Positions 2,399 to 17,955 of a DNA stretch of 24,000 nt are shown piece after piece (within the stretch, counting starts at the first letter, position 1; each line of letters begins with the position of its first letter). The stretch comes from Casimicrobiaceae bacterium. GTDB taxonomy: Bacteria; Pseudomonadota; Gammaproteobacteria; Burkholderiales; Casimicrobiaceae. Location of the stretch: the NCBI GenBank assembly GCA_035499135.1, contig DATJZM010000043.1:18721-42720 (forward strand), read 5' to 3'. The translations under genes were made by a program, and so were the position numbers. The notes under the pieces were generated by a model. The model was not told the DNA's origin, made no database searches, and was given only the letters and a program-made list of their open reading frames with translations.

Positions 2399-3163
2399 AT
2401 GCGTCCGTGGCTCGCCATCGTCTGCGGTGCAATCCTCATCGTTCTCGCGCTGATCATCAGCGCGCCGGCGAGCTTGCTCGAGGGGCGCCTCGCCAAGATC
2501 TCCGGCGGCCGAGCGCAAATCTCGAGCGCAAGCGGGACGCTGTGGCAAGGCGCCGGCGAGCTGGTCCTCGACGACGGGGTCCGGCGGCGCGTCGCCTGGC
2601 GCCTCGACCCGTGGGCAGCGTTGCGCGGCGAGGTGCGCGGCACGCTGTCGGGCGACGGCGCGGCGCCCGGTGCGCGCTTCGCCCTAGGTCGCGACCGAGT
2701 CGAGCTCGACGGCGTTTCGCTGGCGATGCCGGTTGCTGCGTTGCTTCGGGCAGCGGGGGTGAGCTCGCTGCTCGCGACCGCTGGCGGCGATGTATCGATC
2801 CGCATCGATCGCCTCGTTCGTGACACGGATGCGCTCGATGTTCAACTCGCGCTGCAGTGGAGCGACGCCAGCGTCGCCGCCCCTGGCATCGTTCCGCGCA
2901 TGGCGCTCGGCGACATCCAGGCCGAGCTGTCGGGGCGCGGTGCCGAGGTGAGCGGTCCCATCACCAACCGCGGCGGCGAAGTCGAGCTCTCCGGCAAGGC
3001 AACTGCAAGCGCAAGCGGCAGCACACGTCTGGAAGCCGACATCCGGCCACGGCCCGGTATCGACAAGGCGCATTCGGATGCGATAGCCAAAGCGCTCGCC
3101 GCTGTGGGGGTCCCCGACGGACAGGGCGGCTATCGCGTTGTCTGGTCGGGCCGCACCCGATGA
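2399..3163 (+). CDS. gspN: Type II secretion system protein GspN
   Basis: 254-aa ORF MRPWLAIVCGAILIVLALIISAPASLLEGRL...SGTLWQGAGELVL with an N-terminal TM. The GTLW.G motif and the position after gspM are typical of GspN. Confidence 0.7.
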   Translation: MRPWLAIVCGAILIVLALIISAPASLLEGRLAKISGGRAQISSASGTLWQGAGELVLDDGVRRRVAWRLDPWAALRGEVRGTLSGDGAAPGARFALGRDRVELDGVSLAMPVAALLRAAGVSSLLATAGGDVSIRIDRLVRDTDALDVQLALQWSDASVAAPGIVPRMALGDIQAELSGRGAEVSGPITNRGGEVELSGKATASASGSTRLEADIRPRPGIDKAHSDAIAKALAAVGVPDGQGGYRVVWSGRTR

Positions 3164-3210
3164 GCCGGCGCCGCCGCCGCGGCTCGGCGCAGTCAGTCGA
3201 GCCCGCCCAT

Positions 3211-3918
3211 ATGCGCATGCAACCAAGACGCCTCGCGGGGATCGACGCGCTGCGCGGTTTCGCGCTCTGCCTCATGATGGCCTACCACTTCGTCTTCGAC
3301 CTCGGCTATTTCCGCGTGGTCAGCGTCGACTTCAACAACGATCCATTCTGGCTCACGGCGCGCGCGATCATCTTGAGCTCGTTCCTTCTCCTCGTCGGAG
3401 TGAGCCTCGTGCTCGCGCAGCGTGCCGGCCAGAGCGCGCGTGCGTTCTGGCGCCGCATCGGGCTGATCGTTGGCTGCGCGGCGCTGGTTACCGCCGCGAG
3501 CTACGTGATCTTTCCGAAGACCTTCATCACTTTCGGGGTCCTGCACAGCATCGCCGTCGCCTCGGTGCTCGCGCGACCGCTCGTCGGCTTACCACGCGCC
3601 TCCTTCGCTCTTGGCGCTGCGATCATCGCGGCGGGAGCCACGCTGCGTTTCCCTGTCTTCGACTTGCCGCTCTTGAACTGGGTCGGCATGATGACGCACC
3701 GGCCGCCGACAGAGGACTACGTCCCACTTTTTCCGTGGCTCGGCGTCGTCCTCGTGGGTGTGGGCCTCGGCGCCTGGCTGACCGCGCGCGACCGCGCACC
3801 ATTGGGATGGCTTGGACAGCGCGCCCCAGGCTGGCTCGCCTGGCTAGGGCGCCACAGCTTGCTGGTGTACATGGTGCATCAACCCGTGCTCGTCGGCATT
3901 CTCCGCGTGGTCGTCTAG
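3211..3918 (+). CDS. DUF1624 / heparan-alpha-glucosaminide N-acetyltransferase-like integral membrane protein
   Basis: 235-aa polytopic membrane protein starting MRMQPRRLAGIDALRGFALCLMMAYHFVFDLGYF.... The R..GID.LRG.A...M..YH motif is characteristic of DUF1624. The ORF-track frame extends upstream to 2857, but that part is Arg-rich and overlaps gspN. Confidence 0.7.
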   Translation: MRMQPRRLAGIDALRGFALCLMMAYHFVFDLGYFRVVSVDFNNDPFWLTARAIILSSFLLLVGVSLVLAQRAGQSARAFWRRIGLIVGCAALVTAASYVIFPKTFITFGVLHSIAVASVLARPLVGLPRASFALGAAIIAAGATLRFPVFDLPLLNWVGMMTHRPPTEDYVPLFPWLGVVLVGVGLGAWLTARDRAPLGWLGQRAPGWLAWLGRHSLLVYMVHQPVLVGILRVVV

Positions 3919-4051: not shown

Positions 4052-4128
4052 AGGCGCGTAGCTCAGCTGGTTAGAGCACCACCTTGACATGGTGGGGGTC
4101 GTTGGTTCGAGTCCAATCGCGCCTACCA
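4052..4128 (+). tRNA. tRNA-Val (anticodon GAC)
   Basis: Cloverleaf folded by hand: acceptor AGGCGCG/CGCGCCU, D arm GCUC-AGCUGGUUA-GAGC, anticodon arm CCACC-UUGACAU-GGUGG, T arm GUUGG-UUCGAGU-CCAAU, encoded CCA. Confidence 0.95.
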
Positions 4129-11612: not shown

Positions 11613-11689
11613 CGGGGCGTAGCGCAGCCTGGTAGCGCACCTGCATGGGGTGCAGGGGGTCGTGTGTTCGAATCACATCGCCCCGACCA
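11613..11689 (+). tRNA. tRNA-Pro (anticodon GGG)
   Basis: Hand-folded: acceptor CGGGGCG/CGCCCCG, D arm GCGC-AGCCUGGUA-GCGC, anticodon arm CCUGC-AUGGGGU-GCAGG, T arm GUGUG-UUCGAAU-CACAU, encoded CCA. Confidence 0.95.
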
Positions 11690-11893: not shown

Positions 11894-13012
11894 ATGAGCA
11901 CGGCACAGCAGCGTGCCCCCGGCAAGCCGGGCGTTATTTCGGAACTGGCGCTCGCCAGGGCCCAGCGCAACACCGTCGTCATCATCGATGACCTGTTCAG
12001 CAGCCGACTGCTGCTGGCCGAGATCGTCCGGCAGATCGACGGCAAGCTCAACCTGGAACTGTTCGACACACCGAGCCGCGCGCTCGAATACGCGCGCAGC
12101 AACCGGGTCGACATGATCCTCACCGACTACAAGCTGCCCGAGTTCGATGGCGTGCAGCTCGTGCGACAGCTACGGGCACTGCCGCACTGTGTCGATGTGC
12201 CGATCGTGGTGATCACGGTGGTCGACGACCGCCGTGTGCGCTATCAGGCGCTCGAGGCGGGCGCCACAGACTTCCTGATCAAACCGCTCGACGAACATGA
12301 AACGCGAGCGCGCTGCGCCAACCTGCTGGAACTGCGTCGGCACAAGATCGTGCTTTCCGACCAGGCGCGAGTGCTCCAGTACCAGGTCGACAAGTCAGTG
12401 GCCGAGATCCATGAGCGCGAGCTGGAGACGCTCTCCAAGCTCGCCAAGGCGGGCGAATTCCGCGACCGCACGACCGGCAACCACCTCACACGCATGGCGC
12501 GCTATTCAGGGCTCATCGGCGTGAACCTCGGGCTTGCGCAGGAGACAGTCCACGTGCTGGAAGTCGCTGCGCCGATGCACGACATCGGCAAGATCGGCAT
12601 CCCCGACGCGATCCTGCTGAAGGACTCTCCGCTGACCGCCGCCGAGGACGAGATCATGCGGACGCACCCGCGTATAGGCTACGACATCCTCAAGGGCAGC
12701 CCCTCGAAATACCTGAGCATGGGCGCCATCATCGCGCTGGGCCATCACGAGAAATTCGACGGCTCGGGCTATCCGAACGGCCTGCACGGGGAAGACATCC
12801 CGATCGTGGCCCGCATCGTCGCCGTTGCCGACGTCTTCGACGCCCTGGTGAGCGAGCGTCCCTACAAGCACGCCTGGAGCATCGAGGAAGGCTTCGCTTA
12901 TCTGGAGTCCCAGAAAAGCAAGCATTTCGATCCGAGGTGCGTTGAGGCGTTCCTGGCGGGGGCGGAGAAGGTGCGGGAGATACACCGGGAATTCGGTGAT
13001 GTGACCGCTTGA
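11894..13012 (+). CDS. Two-component response regulator with REC + HD-GYP domains (RpfG-like c-di-GMP phosphodiesterase)
   Basis: 372 aa. Receiver motifs VVIIDD...MILTDYKLPEFDG...VVITV...IKP. HD-GYP motifs HDIGKIGIP...HHEKFDGSGYPNGL. GC is close to that of the flanking core genes. Confidence 0.9.
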   Translation: MSTAQQRAPGKPGVISELALARAQRNTVVIIDDLFSSRLLLAEIVRQIDGKLNLELFDTPSRALEYARSNRVDMILTDYKLPEFDGVQLVRQLRALPHCVDVPIVVITVVDDRRVRYQALEAGATDFLIKPLDEHETRARCANLLELRRHKIVLSDQARVLQYQVDKSVAEIHERELETLSKLAKAGEFRDRTTGNHLTRMARYSGLIGVNLGLAQETVHVLEVAAPMHDIGKIGIPDAILLKDSPLTAAEDEIMRTHPRIGYDILKGSPSKYLSMGAIIALGHHEKFDGSGYPNGLHGEDIPIVARIVAVADVFDALVSERPYKHAWSIEEGFAYLESQKSKHFDPRCVEAFLAGAEKVREIHREFGDVTA

Positions 13013-13058
13013 TGGTTCGTCCGCCACGCCGGCGCAGTGCTCGATTCCAGTCCTAGGG

Positions 13059-13085
13059 GCCCGTGCCAGCCAGGGCCTGGCGGGC
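13059..13085 (+). terminator. GC-rich hairpin downstream of the HD-GYP gene (possible terminator; no clear U-tract)
   Basis: GCCCG-T-GCCAG [CCAGGGC] CTGGC-GGGC: 10 bp stem with one bulge. The base composition drops sharply just 3' of it. Confidence 0.35.
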
Positions 13086-13121
13086 GCTTGATCCGATTAG
13101 GTAGTGTGCATCGCAGCGATG

Positions 13122-13154
13122 TGTAGGTATGTGTAGAATTGACTGTAGGCTACA
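13122..13154. promoter_or_regulatory. Phased TGTAG repeat array ending in the palindrome TGTAG-G-CTACA, interleaved with TTGACT -35-like hexamers; candidate operator/promoter upstream of the rpfF-like gene
   Basis: TGTAG at 13122, 13132 and 13144 (spacing 10 and 12 nt). Inverted copy CTACA at 13150-13154. Further copies at 13299 and 13322. TTGACT at 13139, 13158 and 13226. Confidence 0.4.
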
Positions 13155-13336
13155 TATTGACTTATCATCCCAGTATCGCTGGGGGGAAAAACTTAAGCAC
13201 ACCGGGCTAGCGATACGCCCCACTGTTGACTGGGGTATCTAGCATCAAGGCCGCTTGTGCGCCACAATAGCGAGCGGGAAAGAATTCGTCGACTCAATGT
13301 AGCCCACCGTCTTTAACCACCTGTAGGGAGGCCCCT

Positions 13337-14275
13337 GTGAATGCGATAGTCGATTTCCCGACTCTCACAACTCTAAATAGCTATGAGCAGATCGAGCTCG
13401 AGTTTGATTCCGAACTTAAGACGCTTTTTTCTTGGATGAAGCCTGAGCCAAGGCCCTGTTTTAATCCTGGACTGCTAGAAGAGATTCAGCATTGTGAACA
13501 GGCTATCGAGGTCCACCAAGGCCACTTCCACGACTCGGGGCGCCTCGCTCGGGTGAACTATGTCGTGTTTGGCAGCAAGGTCCCGGGTGTCTTTAATCTT
13601 GGTGGCGATCTAAGTATGTTTATCGATGCAATTATGCGCAAGGATCGCGAAACTCTCGTGTATTACGCACACCTCTGCATCGATAACCAATATCGTCGCG
13701 CGACTGGTTTTGGCGCGAGCATCACAACAATTTCGTTGTTACAAGGCAAAGCGCTGGGGGGCGGGTTTGAAGCCGCATTGGCAACCGACTTCATCGTTGC
13801 TGAGCGCAGTGTTTCTGTCTCCTTTCCAGAAATCCTGTTCAACCTCTTCCCCGGAATGGGCGCACTGAGTTTCCTTGCGCGGCGCATTGGTTTGAACAAG
13901 GCAGAAGAGATCATTGCCAGCGGGCAAATCTTCAGCGCGAGGGAGATGCTGGAGCTTGGGGTCTTCAACGAAGTCGTCGAAGACGGCCTTGGGCTTGAGG
14001 CGACTAGGCGCTTAATCCAGAATCGCCAGCGTCGCCAGAACGCATACAGCGCAATGCAGCGGGCAAAGAGCTACTACCAACCAGTGGCCTTATCAGACCT
14101 CAAAGGCATTGTTGATGTCTGGGTCGATGCCGCGATGCGACTGGAAACGCGCGACCTCCGGATGATGCATCGGCTGGTTCGAGCGCAAGACAGGCTAATG
14201 TCGGCGACACCAGAAGACGCCGTAGTCGAAACGCTTTACGCACCGGCCGAAATGGTCGCGGTTGGCAACGGCTAG
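13337..14275 (+). CDS. rpfF: RpfF-family crotonase (DSF-type cis-2-enoyl fatty acid signal synthase)
   Basis: 312 aa, GTG start 6 nt after GGGAGG. Blocks PRPCFNPGLLEEI, VFNLGGDL, GKALGGGFEAAL, FPEILFNLFPGMGALSF and VWVDAAMRLETRDLRMMHRLVRAQDRL match recalled Xanthomonas RpfF and Burkholderia BCAM0581. Both catalytic Glu equivalents are present (E145 at 13769-13771, E165 at 13829-13831). GC is much lower than in the flanks. Confidence 0.8.
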   Translation: MNAIVDFPTLTTLNSYEQIELEFDSELKTLFSWMKPEPRPCFNPGLLEEIQHCEQAIEVHQGHFHDSGRLARVNYVVFGSKVPGVFNLGGDLSMFIDAIMRKDRETLVYYAHLCIDNQYRRATGFGASITTISLLQGKALGGGFEAALATDFIVAERSVSVSFPEILFNLFPGMGALSFLARRIGLNKAEEIIASGQIFSAREMLELGVFNEVVEDGLGLEATRRLIQNRQRRQNAYSAMQRAKSYYQPVALSDLKGIVDVWVDAAMRLETRDLRMMHRLVRAQDRLMSATPEDAVVETLYAPAEMVAVGNG

Positions 14276-14284
14276 TCGCCAATG

Positions 14285-16882
14285 CTAGTGTGACGCGCCC
14301 CTTTTTTGGGTGTACGTGGTGAGGTGCGCCGAAGTAGCATCAAAGCATCGGCGCATCTCGGCGGCGAGTCGACGCAGTTGCTCGAACTGGGCACTCGCTG
14401 CAACTTCCTCTATTTCGACGCATTGAGCAGCAAGTTGTTCGGCACCGATGCCGAGCGCAACACCTCGGATCGCGTGCGTAATGTCCGTGAGCGTGGTCCG
14501 CTGCTCGGCGACAATTGCAGCATCTAGTCGTTTCAGCAAGCTTTCGACGTCACCTCGGAATCCTCGCAGGAGTTCCAGCAGGAACGTACTGTCACGCGAG
14601 ATACGCTCGACCTCTTGCATTCTCGCGTGATCGATCAGCTCAACAGTGGCAGGCCGGCTGGCTGCGCCGCTCCGAGCACGCTGCTGCTGTCCCTTGGTTG
14701 CCCGACGCGCTAGTCGATCGATCACCTGCAGAAGGCCCGCCGCCTCGAAGGGTTTGCCGACGAACTCATCTGCCCCAGCCTGCCTCGCTTTTTCTCTAGA
14801 TTCCTTTGTTACCGACGCGGACAAAATGATCACCGGCAAACGAGTACCAGTAGGCTCCATGGTCCTGATTGTAGTAACTACCTCGACACCGCTTCGCTCA
14901 GGCATATTGAAGTCAAGGATGGCGAGTTCCGGGTGCTCCGTTTCGTAAACATCTAGAGCTTCCTCCCCATCGGACGCAAGCAAGACCGTATGCCCGGCCG
15001 TCTCCAAGAGCTTGCGGATAATTGTCTGGTTTGTGGCATTGTCCTCGGCGACCAGGATGCGCTGTGGCTGTCTCTGTTCTTGCAGCACTTGACCGAGGTC
15101 GATGATTTCCGCGCCCTCAGTTGTCTCTCCGGTTGTTGCGGCATGAATTGCATTACGCAGGACTCGGGCCGAAATTCCGATGTCCAGACAGGTGACGCCG
15201 TCGATTCGACGTAACCTTGTCTTCTCCTGATCACTGAGTGGCCCATGCGACATGTAGATCATCGCCATAGGCCCTTTCTCCCGTTCAGCAGCAAAGACTT
15301 CAAACGTCTCGCACGCCCTGTTGACATCAGCCGCAACGATTAAGGCCTGCACCATGAGGTCTTGTTCCTTCAGGGCCTTCACTCGACGAAGCGCGCCCTC
15401 AGCAGATGTAGCGTGTTCAGCCCGATCGCAGACGGATGCTAGAAGCATATCAACTTGGGCTGTCGAAGCGTCGTCGGCAATAATCACCGCGACCGTCGGG
15501 CGCGCACCCGCTTCATCCGCCGACTGGCCGACAGGTGGTTGCAAGAGAACCTTAGTCTTCAGGAGTGGCAGCTCGAACCAGAAAGTACTGCCGGCGCCTG
15601 GGGTGCTCTTCAATCCTATGATGCCACCCATTAGTTCAACGAGCTGCTTGGCGATAGTAGTGCCCAGACCAGTCCCGCCATATCGGCGTGTCGTTGAATC
15701 GTCTGCCTGTACAAAACGCTCGAATATTCGCTGCTGTACAGCTGCATCAATCCCAATACCGGTGTCGCGAACCTCAAAGCGCAGGCGGAGGCCCTCGTCG
15801 GTTTCCGCGAGGAGCGTCACCTCGATACCCACTTCTCCGCGCTCTGTAAATTTGATCGCGTTTGAAAGCAAGTTTAGAAGCACCTGGCGCAGGTGATGGG
15901 GGTCGCCCCGAAGACGGTAATCGATTGCTGGGTCGATCATCGCTTGCAGCGCCAAACCCTTGGCTTGCGCATGCGGGCGTAACAGCTTTACTAAGCCATT
16001 AAGCGTTGCATGAAGATCAAAGTCGGCAATCTCAATATTCAATCTCCCCGCTTCGATCTTGGAGATGTCCAAGACGTCATCCACAAGTGAGCGCAGCAGC
16101 GTAACTGAATGGCGCAGCAAACGCATCAACTCAGTTTGCTGCGGACTTAGACTCGTCGTTTGTAGCAGGTCCGCCACCCCGACAATGCCGTTCAACGGCG
16201 TCCGCATCTCATGGCTCATGTTCGCCAGGAATGAGCTCTTCGCACGATTGGCGTCCTGGGCGCGAGCTTTCTCACGTAGGTTCACTCTTAAGAGCTTGGC
16301 CACGTAGAGCGGTAACAGGATCAGGGCGACCATCAGACAGATGCCAGCAGTGAAGTGGGGCTGCCAGAATGGCGCGTAGTTCAGAACTGAGGTAAACCCG
16401 GCGATGCACAGGAGTCCACACGCGAAGAGGTAAGGGATCCCGTAGCGAAAACCGTTTCCAAACGTGATAAACAAGTACACCCCAATCATCAGGAAGCCGA
16501 TTTCGTCCGTGAGAAACATCACGGCGGTTGCAGTTGCCGTATCGGCGAGCATCCCGATTAACCGGCGCGGAACGTTGGCTACTGGCCAGACGCAGATGCA
16601 AGCGAAGATTGCGAGCGCAAGGGCAAGATCAGCTTCGAGCACCATCAGAAGCAAGCTCGATGTGGAATGCCGCCATAACATGAGGGCCAACACTGCCCCC
16701 ACGATGACGATGCGAATGATCGCCTGCTCGGGCTCTGAGTCCGTGCGCGCGTTTAGGCGACGCCTGAAGACAGAAAACAGCGTGCCTAGCCGACTCAATG
16801 CGCGACCGCCTTCGTTCAGTTTTTGTGCGGTGTTATCCACAAGCTGTGACTTAGCAAGTAGCATGCCCACATCATGAAACAC
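14285..16882 (-). CDS. RpfC-like hybrid sensor histidine kinase (multi-TM sensor, HisKA, HATPase_c, degenerate receiver-like domain, REC, HPt)
   Basis: 865 aa. About five hydrophobic segments in residues 55-197, preceded by [14 protein letters not shown]-box [16 protein letters not shown] (H224). N/G boxes [21 protein letters not shown]. Receiver RILVAEDN...ILDFNMP (D657)...ILSAS...GKP. HPt-like [16 protein letters not shown] (H803). Start is uncertain: GTG 16882 or ATG 16864. Confidence 0.85.
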
Positions 16883-16904
16883 CTAAGTCATTGGTGCAGC
16901 ATAG

Positions 16905-16924
16905 GTTCTTATCTTGCCAAGAAC
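16905..16924. promoter_or_regulatory. 20-bp inverted repeat GTTCTT-N8-AAGAAC in the divergent kinase/luxR intergenic region (candidate operator)
   Basis: Perfect 6-bp arms (16905-16910 / 16919-16924), about 23 nt upstream of the kinase GTG start. Its size matches LuxR-type boxes, but its sequence does not resemble the lux box. Confidence 0.3.
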
Positions 16925-17084
16925 GAGTGTCGGACGCAAGGCGGCCAATAATGCCTGATTGGTCTGGGCACTTCGATGGGTACCCCTTGCAGATGGTGCT
17001 ATCGTCCTTAAGCCTAGCCGTACCCCTCGGTTGGCAACTGAGCTGCAAAGTCGGCGCGACCACACTTCCCTCACGAGCTACGAG

Positions 17085-17879
17085 ATGGCTTTCCATTCGC
17101 TGGAACTTCGGGGCCTCCGCGTACCGGATACTGGCACTACGCCATCGCTGCTCGCGCCACTTAAGGAGGCAGCGGAGCAGGGACGCGATTTGAGACCAGT
17201 GGTTGACGCTATTGTCAATTCTCTTGGTTTCGACAGCGTGATGTATGGGCTAAGTACGGCACTGCGCCCGGGCCAAGACAGTCTAGTCTTCTTCTTCACG
17301 AACGCATCTCTTGAATGGGTGCGTCGTTATGACCAAGAAGCTTACATTGAAGTGGATCCGAGGATAGAGCACGGAGTGGCATCAACGCTACCCCACATGT
17401 GGGACCAATCGACTGATCATGGTAAGTCGTCGCGTGTCGATGCGTTCCTGCGTGATGCAGCCGGTTTCGGTATCTGCAGCGGGGTATCCTTTATCCTTCC
17501 GGACACCCAGCGCGCGTCGGTCATACTGTGTCTGAACTCCAACCTTCGGCGCATCGATGATGAGCGAAGGGCTATGCTCGTGAGCAACTACGGCACGATG
17601 CTGATGTTCGGGTACTATTTTCATGAGCTGTTCATGCGCCACGTTGTTGATGCTGGAATGCCATCGCATCTGCAAGGGGCCCCCCTCACTGCACGTGAGC
17701 GACAGTGCCTCACTATGGCAGCGTGCGGGTTGACTACGGATGACATTGCCGAACGCCTGGGAATCAGGCCCAGAACAGCTCAGTTTCACTTCGACTCAAT
17801 CCGCACCAAACTCGCCGTCGCAACGCGGCACGAAGCCATTGCGCGCGCAGTGCAGACAAGACTTATCACCCTCAGCTAG
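17085..17879 (+). CDS. LuxR-family transcriptional regulator with N-terminal autoinducer (AHL)-binding domain and C-terminal GerE/LuxR HTH; no luxI in the window (LuxR solo)
   Basis: 264 aa. NASLEWVRRYDQEAYIEVDPRIEHGVASTLPHMWD...GFGICSGVSF reproduces the W57/Y61/D70/P71/W85/G113 (TraR numbering) pattern with identical spacing up to W85. C-terminus LTARERQCLTMAACGLTTDDIAERLGIRPRTAQFHFDSIRTKL is a LuxR-type HTH. The start at ATG 17085 is the best guess. Confidence 0.85.
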   Translation: MAFHSLELRGLRVPDTGTTPSLLAPLKEAAEQGRDLRPVVDAIVNSLGFDSVMYGLSTALRPGQDSLVFFFTNASLEWVRRYDQEAYIEVDPRIEHGVASTLPHMWDQSTDHGKSSRVDAFLRDAAGFGICSGVSFILPDTQRASVILCLNSNLRRIDDERRAMLVSNYGTMLMFGYYFHELFMRHVVDAGMPSHLQGAPLTARERQCLTMAACGLTTDDIAERLGIRPRTAQFHFDSIRTKLAVATRHEAIARAVQTRLITLS

Positions 17880-17955
17880 TTCGCTTAGCTGCGAGGCGTA
17901 GGGGGTCGCTAAGGAAGAATAGCCCATCCGTTCGAGCGCGGGCGGTGTTACTTAC

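Follow-up and report, generated by a model that had tools for sequence, protein, structure and literature searches.

The 24,000-nucleotide stretch of contig DATJZM010000043.1 from a Casimicrobiaceae bacterium analysed here (hereafter 'the window') carries, at positions 11894-17879, four adjacent signalling genes which likely constitute a genuine locus of the betaproteobacterial type for diffusible signal factor (DSF) signalling, with a dedicated sub-family of LuxR-type regulators as a stable part of the cassette. The genes encode a response regulator combining receiver (REC) and HD-GYP domains, an RpfF-family crotonase, an RpfC-like hybrid sensor kinase with a histidine phosphotransfer (HPt) domain, and a LuxR-family regulator; the listing of open reading frames (ORFs) and Pfam scans recovered all of the domain architectures that the initial annotation had assigned to them. 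To our knowledge, signalling by N-acyl-homoserine lactones (AHLs) through LuxR proteins and signalling by DSF through Rpf proteins have been regarded as distinct systems whose only point of contact is downstream regulation. The comparison of loci presented here points to a LuxR-family protein as a heritable component of a DSF cassette in uncultured soil bacteria that form a widespread group.

Architecture of the locus

The putative signal synthase (13337-14275, + strand, GTG start, 312 residues) exhibits the crotonase fold (Pfam ECH_1, 2.4e-21; ECH_2, 2.4e-10). Its best matches in the PDB are RpfF structures, namely 6dgn/5fus (6e-56) and Xanthomonas RpfF 3m6m (4e-52), with the next crotonase following at 6e-15, and its score against NCBIfam PRK08788 (350 bits) passes the cut-off of 177. 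The protein thus groups, by its PDB and PRK08788 scores, with RpfF and BCAM0581 and not with the hydratases of β-oxidation. Glu145/Glu165, Gly89/90 and Gly141-143 are invariant in an alignment of 20 homologues, and many close homologues carry the JGI name 'DSF synthase'. In RpfF of Xanthomonas campestris pv. campestris (Xcc), the catalytic Glu pair is E141/E161 and the Gly residues are G86/G138 (PMC9040811); the spacing between Glu145 and Glu165 (20 residues) is the same as between the two Xcc residues.

Convergent with rpfF, and separated from it by 9 nt between the two stop codons, lies the kinase gene (14285-16798, - strand, with alternative starts up to 16882). Pfam matches (HisKA, HATPase_c, Response_reg, Hpt) and hydropathy yield the domain order polytopic membrane input, HisKA, HATPase_c, an insert of ~150 residues, REC and HPt, and in the translation 'SHEMRTP' constitutes the His box, 'ILDFNMP' harbours the receiver Asp and 'HAIRG' is the HPt motif. 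A Kyte-Doolittle scan places 5-6 hydrophobic segments at residues ~55-198 of the input region; the RpfC input of most Xanthomonadales consists of five transmembrane regions with very short loops (PMC4517397). When the REC domain was compared with stand-alone receivers in the PDB, that of Xcc RpfC (3m6m_D) turned out to be closest (78.6 bits versus 66 for the next), and N-terminal-only fragments of kinase homologues bear the automatic JGI label RpfC. Searching the protein database with the input region itself returned only such short, automatically labelled fragments and no Xanthomonas RpfC. The RpfC architecture proposed initially is hence borne out by the HisKA-HATPase_c-REC-HPt order, the polytopic input and the convergence with rpfF, a layout that is kept in nearly all of the ~100 loci surveyed. 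The ~150-residue insert between HATPase_c and REC (window 15083-15532, residues ~450-600) has no Pfam match.

Gene callers differ on the start of the kinase (837, 851 or 859 residues), with candidates at 16798, 16840 and 16864. In L096, one of the relatives, the conserved stretch preceding the equivalent of 16798 reads MLLA and then a stop in the kinase frame. Because of this in-frame stop we prefer the TTG start at 16798 and take the stretch 16799-16882 as probably regulatory rather than coding.

As side observations, the pattern 'VAVIIADD...' within the insert resembles a degenerate receiver, and the kinase homologues of Methylophilaceae are shorter (~720-740 residues) and devoid of the ~150-residue insert.

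The response regulator (11894-13012, + strand, 372 residues; Pfam Response_reg, 6e-21; HD_5, 7.5e-36) possesses the RpfG architecture with both the HD motif ('MHDIGK') and the GYP motif ('HHEKFDGSGYP') intact in its translation. Its gene is located upstream of rpfF on the strand opposite to the kinase and is thus not co-operonic with the latter; in most complete relatives an orthologue is no more than a few kb away from the cassette. Finally, the LuxR-family regulator (17085-17879, + strand, 264 residues; Pfam Autoind_bind, 1.8e-23; GerE, 1.1e-13) is encoded divergently from the kinase. The coordinates of the genes agree with those of the gene caller on identical metagenome contigs.

Neither a luxI gene (Autoind_synth) nor an rpfB-like gene (AMP-binding) is present anywhere within the 24-kb window, as had been noted at the outset, and no luxI was detected beside any member of the LuxR family examined. 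The designation 'LuxR solo' accordingly applies at the level of the neighbourhood only.

Recurrence of luxR at rpf loci

The neighbourhoods of RpfF homologues were surveyed by scanning an alignment of these homologues against one genome per species, which yielded 80 loci (plus a few exact-protein look-ups) that were then searched with the domains of the window and a LuxR profile hidden Markov model (HMM). A canonical set of 66 loci, with RpfF less than 50% identical to that of the window (42-49%), stems from Methylophilaceae, Burkholderiales, Gallionellaceae, Sulfuriferula and a few gamma- and alphaproteobacteria, and is almost uniformly arranged as rpfF> <kinase <(small REC) <REC-HD-GYP (arrowheads indicate direction). 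At none of these 66 loci is there a LuxR-type ORF within 10 kb, the profile HMM included. The window-like clade, in turn, comprises uncultured betaproteobacterial metagenome-assembled genomes (MAGs) with RpfF at least 57% identical, in which the HD-GYP gene is separate from the kinase. The detachment of the HD-GYP gene described in the initial annotation therefore stands, since in more than 60 other betaproteobacterial loci this gene resides in the kinase operon. Within this clade LuxR homologues were identified at the window and at L007, L011, L015, L016, L017, L018 and L020 (with two copies in L018 and L020), so that the embedding of a LuxR gene in the DSF cluster is a repeated feature of the lineage; no LuxR was found within 10 kb at L009, L010, L019, L021-L024 and L026-L028. 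LuxR is also encoded at L012 and L014.

A second survey started from the LuxR side: an alignment of the family was compared with JGI metagenome contigs, giving 80 loci at 42-100% identity. An rpfF, kinase or HD-GYP gene lies beside luxR in 23 of the 31 LuxR-subfamily loci that are at least 5 kb long. Four gene orders are observed, that is, (A) HDGYP> rpfF> <kinase luxR> in the window and L108, (B) rpfF> <kinase luxR> <HDGYP in L011, (C) kinase> <rpfF luxR> <HDGYP in nine loci, and (D) luxR> rpfF> <kinase <HDGYP in five loci. Orders C and D place luxR directly next to rpfF, with luxR being transcribed away from rpfF or preceding it in the same orientation, and their RpfF and kinase proteins are only ~45% identical to those of the window; the HD-GYP proteins are as close as inside the window clade. 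The LuxR family is small and distinct: it has 155 database matches, those with names being Casimicrobiaceae MAGs, and the best relative among PLSDB plasmids is 31% identical, with only generic LuxRs found there. A protein identical to the RpfF of the window is encoded on 9 metagenome contigs, and the 6 inspected keep the gene order of the window as far as the contigs reach. Given its recurrence on these 9 contigs and in many diverged relatives, the adjacency of the four genes does not result from chance.

In relatives, the genes between kinase and luxR include those for an E1/E2 dehydrogenase, an alpha/beta hydrolase, an acyl-CoA dehydrogenase, β-ketoacyl-ACP synthase III (KASIII), TctC and an AMP-binding enzyme. 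They were considered as members of a conserved set and rejected, as they vary from locus to locus. A variant arrangement at L014 (1248-9648) consists of the kinase, acyl carrier protein (ACP), a ketosynthase, a 322-residue RpfF-like crotonase, KASIII, luxR and an HD-GYP protein without receiver, with a pair of TGTA-N3-TACA palindromes preceding the crotonase gene; this gene set suggests a dedicated supply of acyl chains for the signal. At L016 (16988-18445), an AMP-binding (acyl-CoA ligase-like) gene follows ~1.2 kb downstream of luxR, after TctC, and may represent the RpfB-like turnover enzyme that is missing from the window. In the long-read-derived contigs of L012 (270-7551) and L013 (8001-9823), the ORFs of kinase, LuxR and HD-GYP are fragmented, which may reflect assembly frameshifts or real pseudogenes; the LuxR of L013 adjoins a DDE transposase and is not near any rpf gene. 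Tandem LuxR paralogues adjoin genes for a replication initiator (RPA, RepA) and ParA-like proteins at L152:460-4868 and L159:6702-10867.

Composition and inheritance as a module

The genes rpfF, kinase and luxR, together with their control regions, form a compositional island (13013..17955; composition profile and per-gene GC content at third codon positions, GC3) in which the GC content is 0.54-0.57, versus 0.64-0.69 outside, and GC3 is ~0.61 versus ~0.83. Specifically, GC3 amounts to 0.607 for rpfF, 0.626 for the kinase and 0.604 for luxR, compared with 0.836 for the HD-GYP gene, 0.850 for ate and 0.78-0.87 for the other flanking genes; a coarse GC profile dips likewise at 13-18 kb. L007, L011, L009 and L153 display this contrast as well, and the canonical Burkholderiales locus L042 lacks it. 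Moreover, comparison of the window with L011 reveals that the rpfF-kinase-luxR block was inverted as a unit. From this inversion and the common GC3 we conclude that rpfF, kinase and luxR are one evolutionary module, while the HD-GYP gene is a resident. Taken together, the shared composition, the four gene orders and the absence of luxR from canonical rpf loci demonstrate, at the level of comparative genomics, that luxR is co-inherited with the synthase-sensor cassette as what appears to be an integral and functionally coupled part of it.

Recent horizontal transfer into the genome of the window alone was considered as the origin of the low GC3 and rejected, because GC3 is equally low in diverged relatives. 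Either repeated exchange of the cassette or selection on codon usage might account for it. The exchangeability of rpfF and rpfC has a parallel in Xanthomonadales, in whose rpf clusters these two genes vary the most and are exchangeable (PMC4517397), much as the rpfF/kinase module is here. As further observations on composition, the GC3 values of kinase and HD-GYP genes at L153 (10001-15671) are 0.55 and 0.81, respectively, though the ORFs abut in one operon, and low GC3 persists where RpfF is only ~45% identical to that of the window.

Ligand pocket of the LuxR sub-family

The AlphaFold2 model of the window LuxR (predicted local distance difference test score 87) has QscR, TraR, LasR, RhlR, SdiA, CviR and CepR2 as its top Foldseek matches, and the best sequence matches are likewise AHL receptors (LasR, QscR, RhlR, TraR). 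In order to characterize the pocket, 36 members of the LuxR sub-family were aligned to LasR and QscR. The equivalent of LasR Trp60 is kept in 34 of the 36, that of Tyr64 is Tyr or Trp in all, and those of Asp73, Pro74, Trp88 and Phe101 are invariant (36/36 for Asp73, Pro74 and Trp88). At the position of LasR Tyr56, Tyr is never encountered (0/36), with Ala, Leu or Val instead (Ala in the window LuxR); Ser129 is Ser in 3 members (Cys in the window LuxR); Gly126, corresponding to TraR Gly113, is Val in 24, including the window LuxR, and Gly in just one; and the equivalent of Thr75 is Arg in all 36 (Arg93). In LasR, Tyr56, Trp60, Asp73 and Ser129 form hydrogen bonds with the autoinducer, while Thr75, Tyr93 and Ala127 line the pocket (PMC10613653). 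The AHL hydrogen-bonding set of LasR is thus incomplete in the sub-family: Trp60 and Asp73 are kept, whereas Tyr56 is replaced throughout and Ser129 for the most part.

Six residues of the ligand-binding domain are regarded as hallmarks of LuxR-type receptors, which in TraR are W57, Y61, D70, P71, W85 and G113. The window LuxR retains five of the six, with Val at the position equivalent to G113. The sub-family is further distinguished by an N-terminal extension of ~35 residues. Judged from the alignment, it is neither a textbook AHL receptor nor a receptor whose conserved core has been replaced, so that the label 'AHL-type' given initially holds for the W-Y-D-P-W core but not for the positions of Tyr56, Ser129 and Thr75, the last being occupied by the invariant Arg. 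A cationic Arg in the head-group region would be compatible with a carboxylate ligand. Candidates for the ligand could then be an AHL from neighbouring cells, the fatty-acid signal of the locus itself or a derivative thereof, or another compound.

Candidate operators

Aligning the regions upstream of rpfF among relatives revealed two sites. Site 1 (13144-13154), which precedes the start of rpfF by 193 nt, is the palindrome TGTAGGCTACA, a candidate operator that reads TTGTAG-N-CTACAA in relatives and occurs a single time in the window against 0.04 expected. Site 2 (13255-13267, + strand), which precedes it by 82 nt, reads TTGTGCGCCACAA (TTGT-N5-ACAA, with GCCACAAT being conserved) and is a candidate operator and/or -10 region; it is likewise single in the window (0.09 expected) and is located at -52 to -89 from rpfF across all four gene orders. 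Site 3, GTGTTATCCACAA (16830-16842, + strand), shares its motif class with site 2 and is situated in the divergent control region between kinase and luxR and is conserved in the order-A relatives L007, L096, L100, L107, L108 and L109; a search for its pattern with one mismatch allowed gave 4 matches against 0.38 expected. A similar site is found in order D upstream of the HD-GYP/kinase operon.

The palindromes upstream of rpfF are conserved in the LuxR-bearing lineage only, and TTGT-N5-ACAA is not encountered in the canonical 66. Among 104 non-redundant regions upstream of rpfF, motif and LuxR occur jointly in 22 and neither occurs in 64, with LuxR lacking the exact motif in 8 and the motif lacking LuxR in 10; several of the 8 have one-mismatch variants.

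Other candidate elements were examined and discarded. A classical lux box (CTG-N10-CAG, dyads of 18-20 bp) is absent from the two intergenic regions, where an inverted-repeat finder returned only short, unremarkable pairs; a sigma-54 promoter at site 2 does not fit the GG/GC spacing; and a sigma-70 promoter near site 1 (TTGACT-18-TATCAT) is not conserved in relatives, with one found against 2.2 expected. In addition, three direct TGTAG(G) repeats spaced by 10-12 nt (tgTGTAGGtatgTGTAGaattgacTGTAGGctaca) are present at 13121-13150 and run into site 1, and two further TGTAG copies precede rpfF, 39 and 15 nt ahead of its start (-39 and -15); these extra copies are not seen in the aligned relatives.

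Possible roles of LuxR in the cassette

Based on what is known for the respective families, the RpfF protein would produce a cis-2-unsaturated fatty acid, which the polytopic RpfC-like kinase would sense and relay by phosphorylating the REC-HD-GYP protein; the latter would then degrade cyclic di-GMP (c-di-GMP) and lower its level. LuxR, on sensing a small ligand, would set the levels of signal synthesis, of the sensor and of LuxR itself. As the conserved cluster encodes no other DNA-binding protein, LuxR is the obvious candidate for binding the palindromes, and we consider the chances to be evenly balanced that it is the transcription factor of the cassette acting at the TTGT-N5-ACAA sites as candidate operators.

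Several observations weigh against a DSF locus with LuxR as its stable, operator-binding component. The crotonase attains only 220 bits against the Xanthomonadales RpfF equivalog NF053515 (cut-off 550) and is, by this score, a member of the broader RpfF family outside the Xanthomonadales orthologue group, and all sequences behind the coupling of LuxR with rpf genes are MAGs or metagenomes. The rpf genes are absent from 8 of the 31 LuxR-family loci, where tandem LuxR paralogues are often found and of which two adjoin RepA/ParA genes, and a part of the family resides, as judged from gene content, on plasmids or integrated elements that carry no rpf genes. The LuxR of L112 is closer to that of the window than the LuxR of L011 is, and RpfF similarity runs the opposite way; LuxR and RpfF similarities are hence not congruent, and strict co-evolution of receptor and synthase is not seen. 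As for the operators, the 10 motif-positive rpfF loci without LuxR within 10 kb all belong to the same lineage, so that the binder could be another lineage-specific protein, or a LuxR encoded elsewhere, and the correlation between motif and LuxR is confounded by shared ancestry. Furthermore, classical lux boxes are 18-20 bp long and the 13-bp palindromes described here are shorter, and site 2 holds a -10-like CACAAT and may simply be a core promoter.

If LuxR is a true AHL receptor without a synthase of its own, AHLs released by neighbours would tune DSF production and sensing, and two signal classes would be joined; such eavesdropping is possible, though less likely than not. It would agree with the retention of the core AHL-receptor residues (Trp60, Tyr64, Asp73, Pro74, Trp88), with LasR, QscR, RhlR and TraR being the top matches in sequence and fold, with the lack of luxI in the window and beside the relatives examined, and with the soil origin of the metagenomes, a habitat in which many AHL producers are generally expected. 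However, the equivalent of Tyr56 is never Tyr, Ser129 is kept in merely 3/36, Gly126 is mostly Val and Thr75 has become an invariant Arg; the tight and repeated adjacency to rpfF, moreover, is more reminiscent of a receptor-synthase pair than of a free solo. Were AHL binding true, the locus would represent a hard-wired point at which signals of one class control how those of the other are made and sensed. In the alternative of a LuxR/RpfF receptor-synthase pair, which we regard as nearly as likely as eavesdropping, LuxR would be retuned to the cis-2-unsaturated fatty acid of the adjacent RpfF, or a derivative of it, and would activate rpfF in a cytoplasmic autoinduction loop beside the membrane RpfC route, a counterpart of LuxR/LuxI with a crotonase as synthase. 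Here, the direct adjacency of luxR and rpfF in orders C and D, the palindromes upstream of rpfF wherever the LuxR lineage is present, and again the lack of luxI near LuxR fit well; a carboxylate head group would be well served by Arg93 in combination with the missing Tyr56 and Ser129; LuxR-type pockets do accept lipids other than AHLs (e.g., octanoyl-rac-glycerol in SdiA, 4y13); and synthases other than LuxI have precedents in the pairs PluR/PpyS and PauR/DarABC. On the other hand, the locus already has an RpfC-like protein to sense the signal, the W-Y-D-P-W core is retained, unlike in PluR and PauR, and the similarities of LuxR and RpfF are incongruent across loci.

In the most far-reaching form of this reading, LuxR would be a cytoplasmic receptor for the DSF-family acid of the neighbouring RpfF, or a close derivative, and the LuxR/RpfF pair would replace the LuxR/LuxI logic, with Arg93 binding the carboxylate and TTGT-N5-ACAA serving as an 'rpf box' for direct autoinduction of rpfF in parallel to the c-di-GMP route via RpfC and HD-GYP. 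We deem this unlikely; fatty-acid binding, if true, would extend the ligand range of LuxR proteins to DSF-family acids and add a crotonase to their partner synthases. Quite improbable, in our view, is that luxR is a mere passenger of a cassette prone to recombination, or that its product controls targets unrelated to the cassette; the palindromes would then serve a different binder, such as a regulator that responds to c-di-GMP and acts downstream of the HD-GYP protein. The 10 motif-bearing rpfF loci without LuxR within 10 kb, the 8 of 31 LuxR loci without rpf genes (some of them on RepA/ParA elements) and the phylogenetic confounding of motif and LuxR could all be explained in this way. Yet the linkage has outlasted four rearrangements and deep divergence, down to ~45% identity of both LuxR and RpfF, which renders a passenger less likely; luxR also matches rpfF and kinase, not the HD-GYP gene, in composition, and encodes the only DNA-binding protein of the conserved cluster.

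Relation to known systems

In Xanthomonadales it is the rule that rpfF and rpfC are located in contiguous convergent operons (PMC4517397), and the convergent layout that had been likened to Xanthomonas rpfF/rpfC, with its gap of 9 nt between the stop codons, follows this rule. The locus shares with the rpf clusters of Xanthomonas and Stenotrophomonas (rpfF facing an rpfC-(rpfH)-rpfG operon) the convergent pair of synthase and HisKA-HATPase-REC-HPt kinase as well as the REC-HD-GYP protein. It differs from them in that the HD-GYP gene is outside the kinase operon, upstream of rpfF and on the same strand as rpfF, in lacking rpfB, and in possessing the ~150-residue kinase insert, the LuxR gene and the lineage-specific palindromes. 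With the 66 canonical betaproteobacterial loci it has homologous proteins (RpfF, 42-49%) and the convergence of rpfF and kinase in common, whereas in those loci the HD-GYP gene comes directly after the kinase, and LuxR and TTGT-N5-ACAA are absent.

The closest solved structure of the synthase (5fus/6dgn, 6e-56) is RpfF_Bc (BCAM0581), which together with RpfR belongs to the Burkholderia diffusible signal factor (BDSF) system of Burkholderia cenocepacia. The BDSF receptor is the adjacent PAS-GGDEF-EAL protein RpfR; here, by comparison, the synthase has an RpfC-like kinase, an HD-GYP protein and LuxR as neighbours.

LuxR solos and pairs of LuxR with synthases other than LuxI (PluR/PpyS and PauR/DarABC of Photorhabdus; SdiA, QscR and the solos of plant-associated bacteria) resemble the present protein in combining Autoind_bind and GerE without an adjacent luxI; in orders C and D, moreover, luxR lies directly beside the gene of a non-LuxI signal synthase. 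The partner synthase here, however, is a DSF-family crotonase, a combination of which we found no description. The W-Y-D-P-W core is replaced in PluR and PauR and retained in the present sub-family, which, compared with LuxR solos, bears its own signature consisting of Arg at LasR Thr75, Ala/Leu/Val at Tyr56 and the ~35-residue N-terminal extension.

Full-text literature searches returned no description of a LuxR gene inside a DSF/rpf cluster or of a LuxR protein coupled to RpfF, in agreement with the initial annotation, which knew of no such locus. All components belong to known families, and it is the combination, a LuxR gene in a DSF cassette, of which we found no description in the literature searched. 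The novelty claimed initially is to be qualified insofar as the arrangement is not unique to the window and recurs in four gene orders; a published characterization of it was not found.

Genomic setting

The signalling locus is bordered on the left by tRNA-Pro(GGG) (11613..11689, + strand, ARAGORN), with which the housekeeping block thrS-infC-rpmI-rplT-pheS-pheT-ihfA-merR ends, and on the right by the ate/aat pair (Pfam). The relatives L007 and L011 have a left flank identical in kind to the housekeeping/tRNA-Pro border of the window. Elsewhere in the window, positions 2399-3163 encode protein N of the type II secretion system and 486-1838 give a weak match to its protein L, an acyltransferase of the HGSNAT type is encoded at 2857-3918, and a tRNA-Val is located at 4052-4128.

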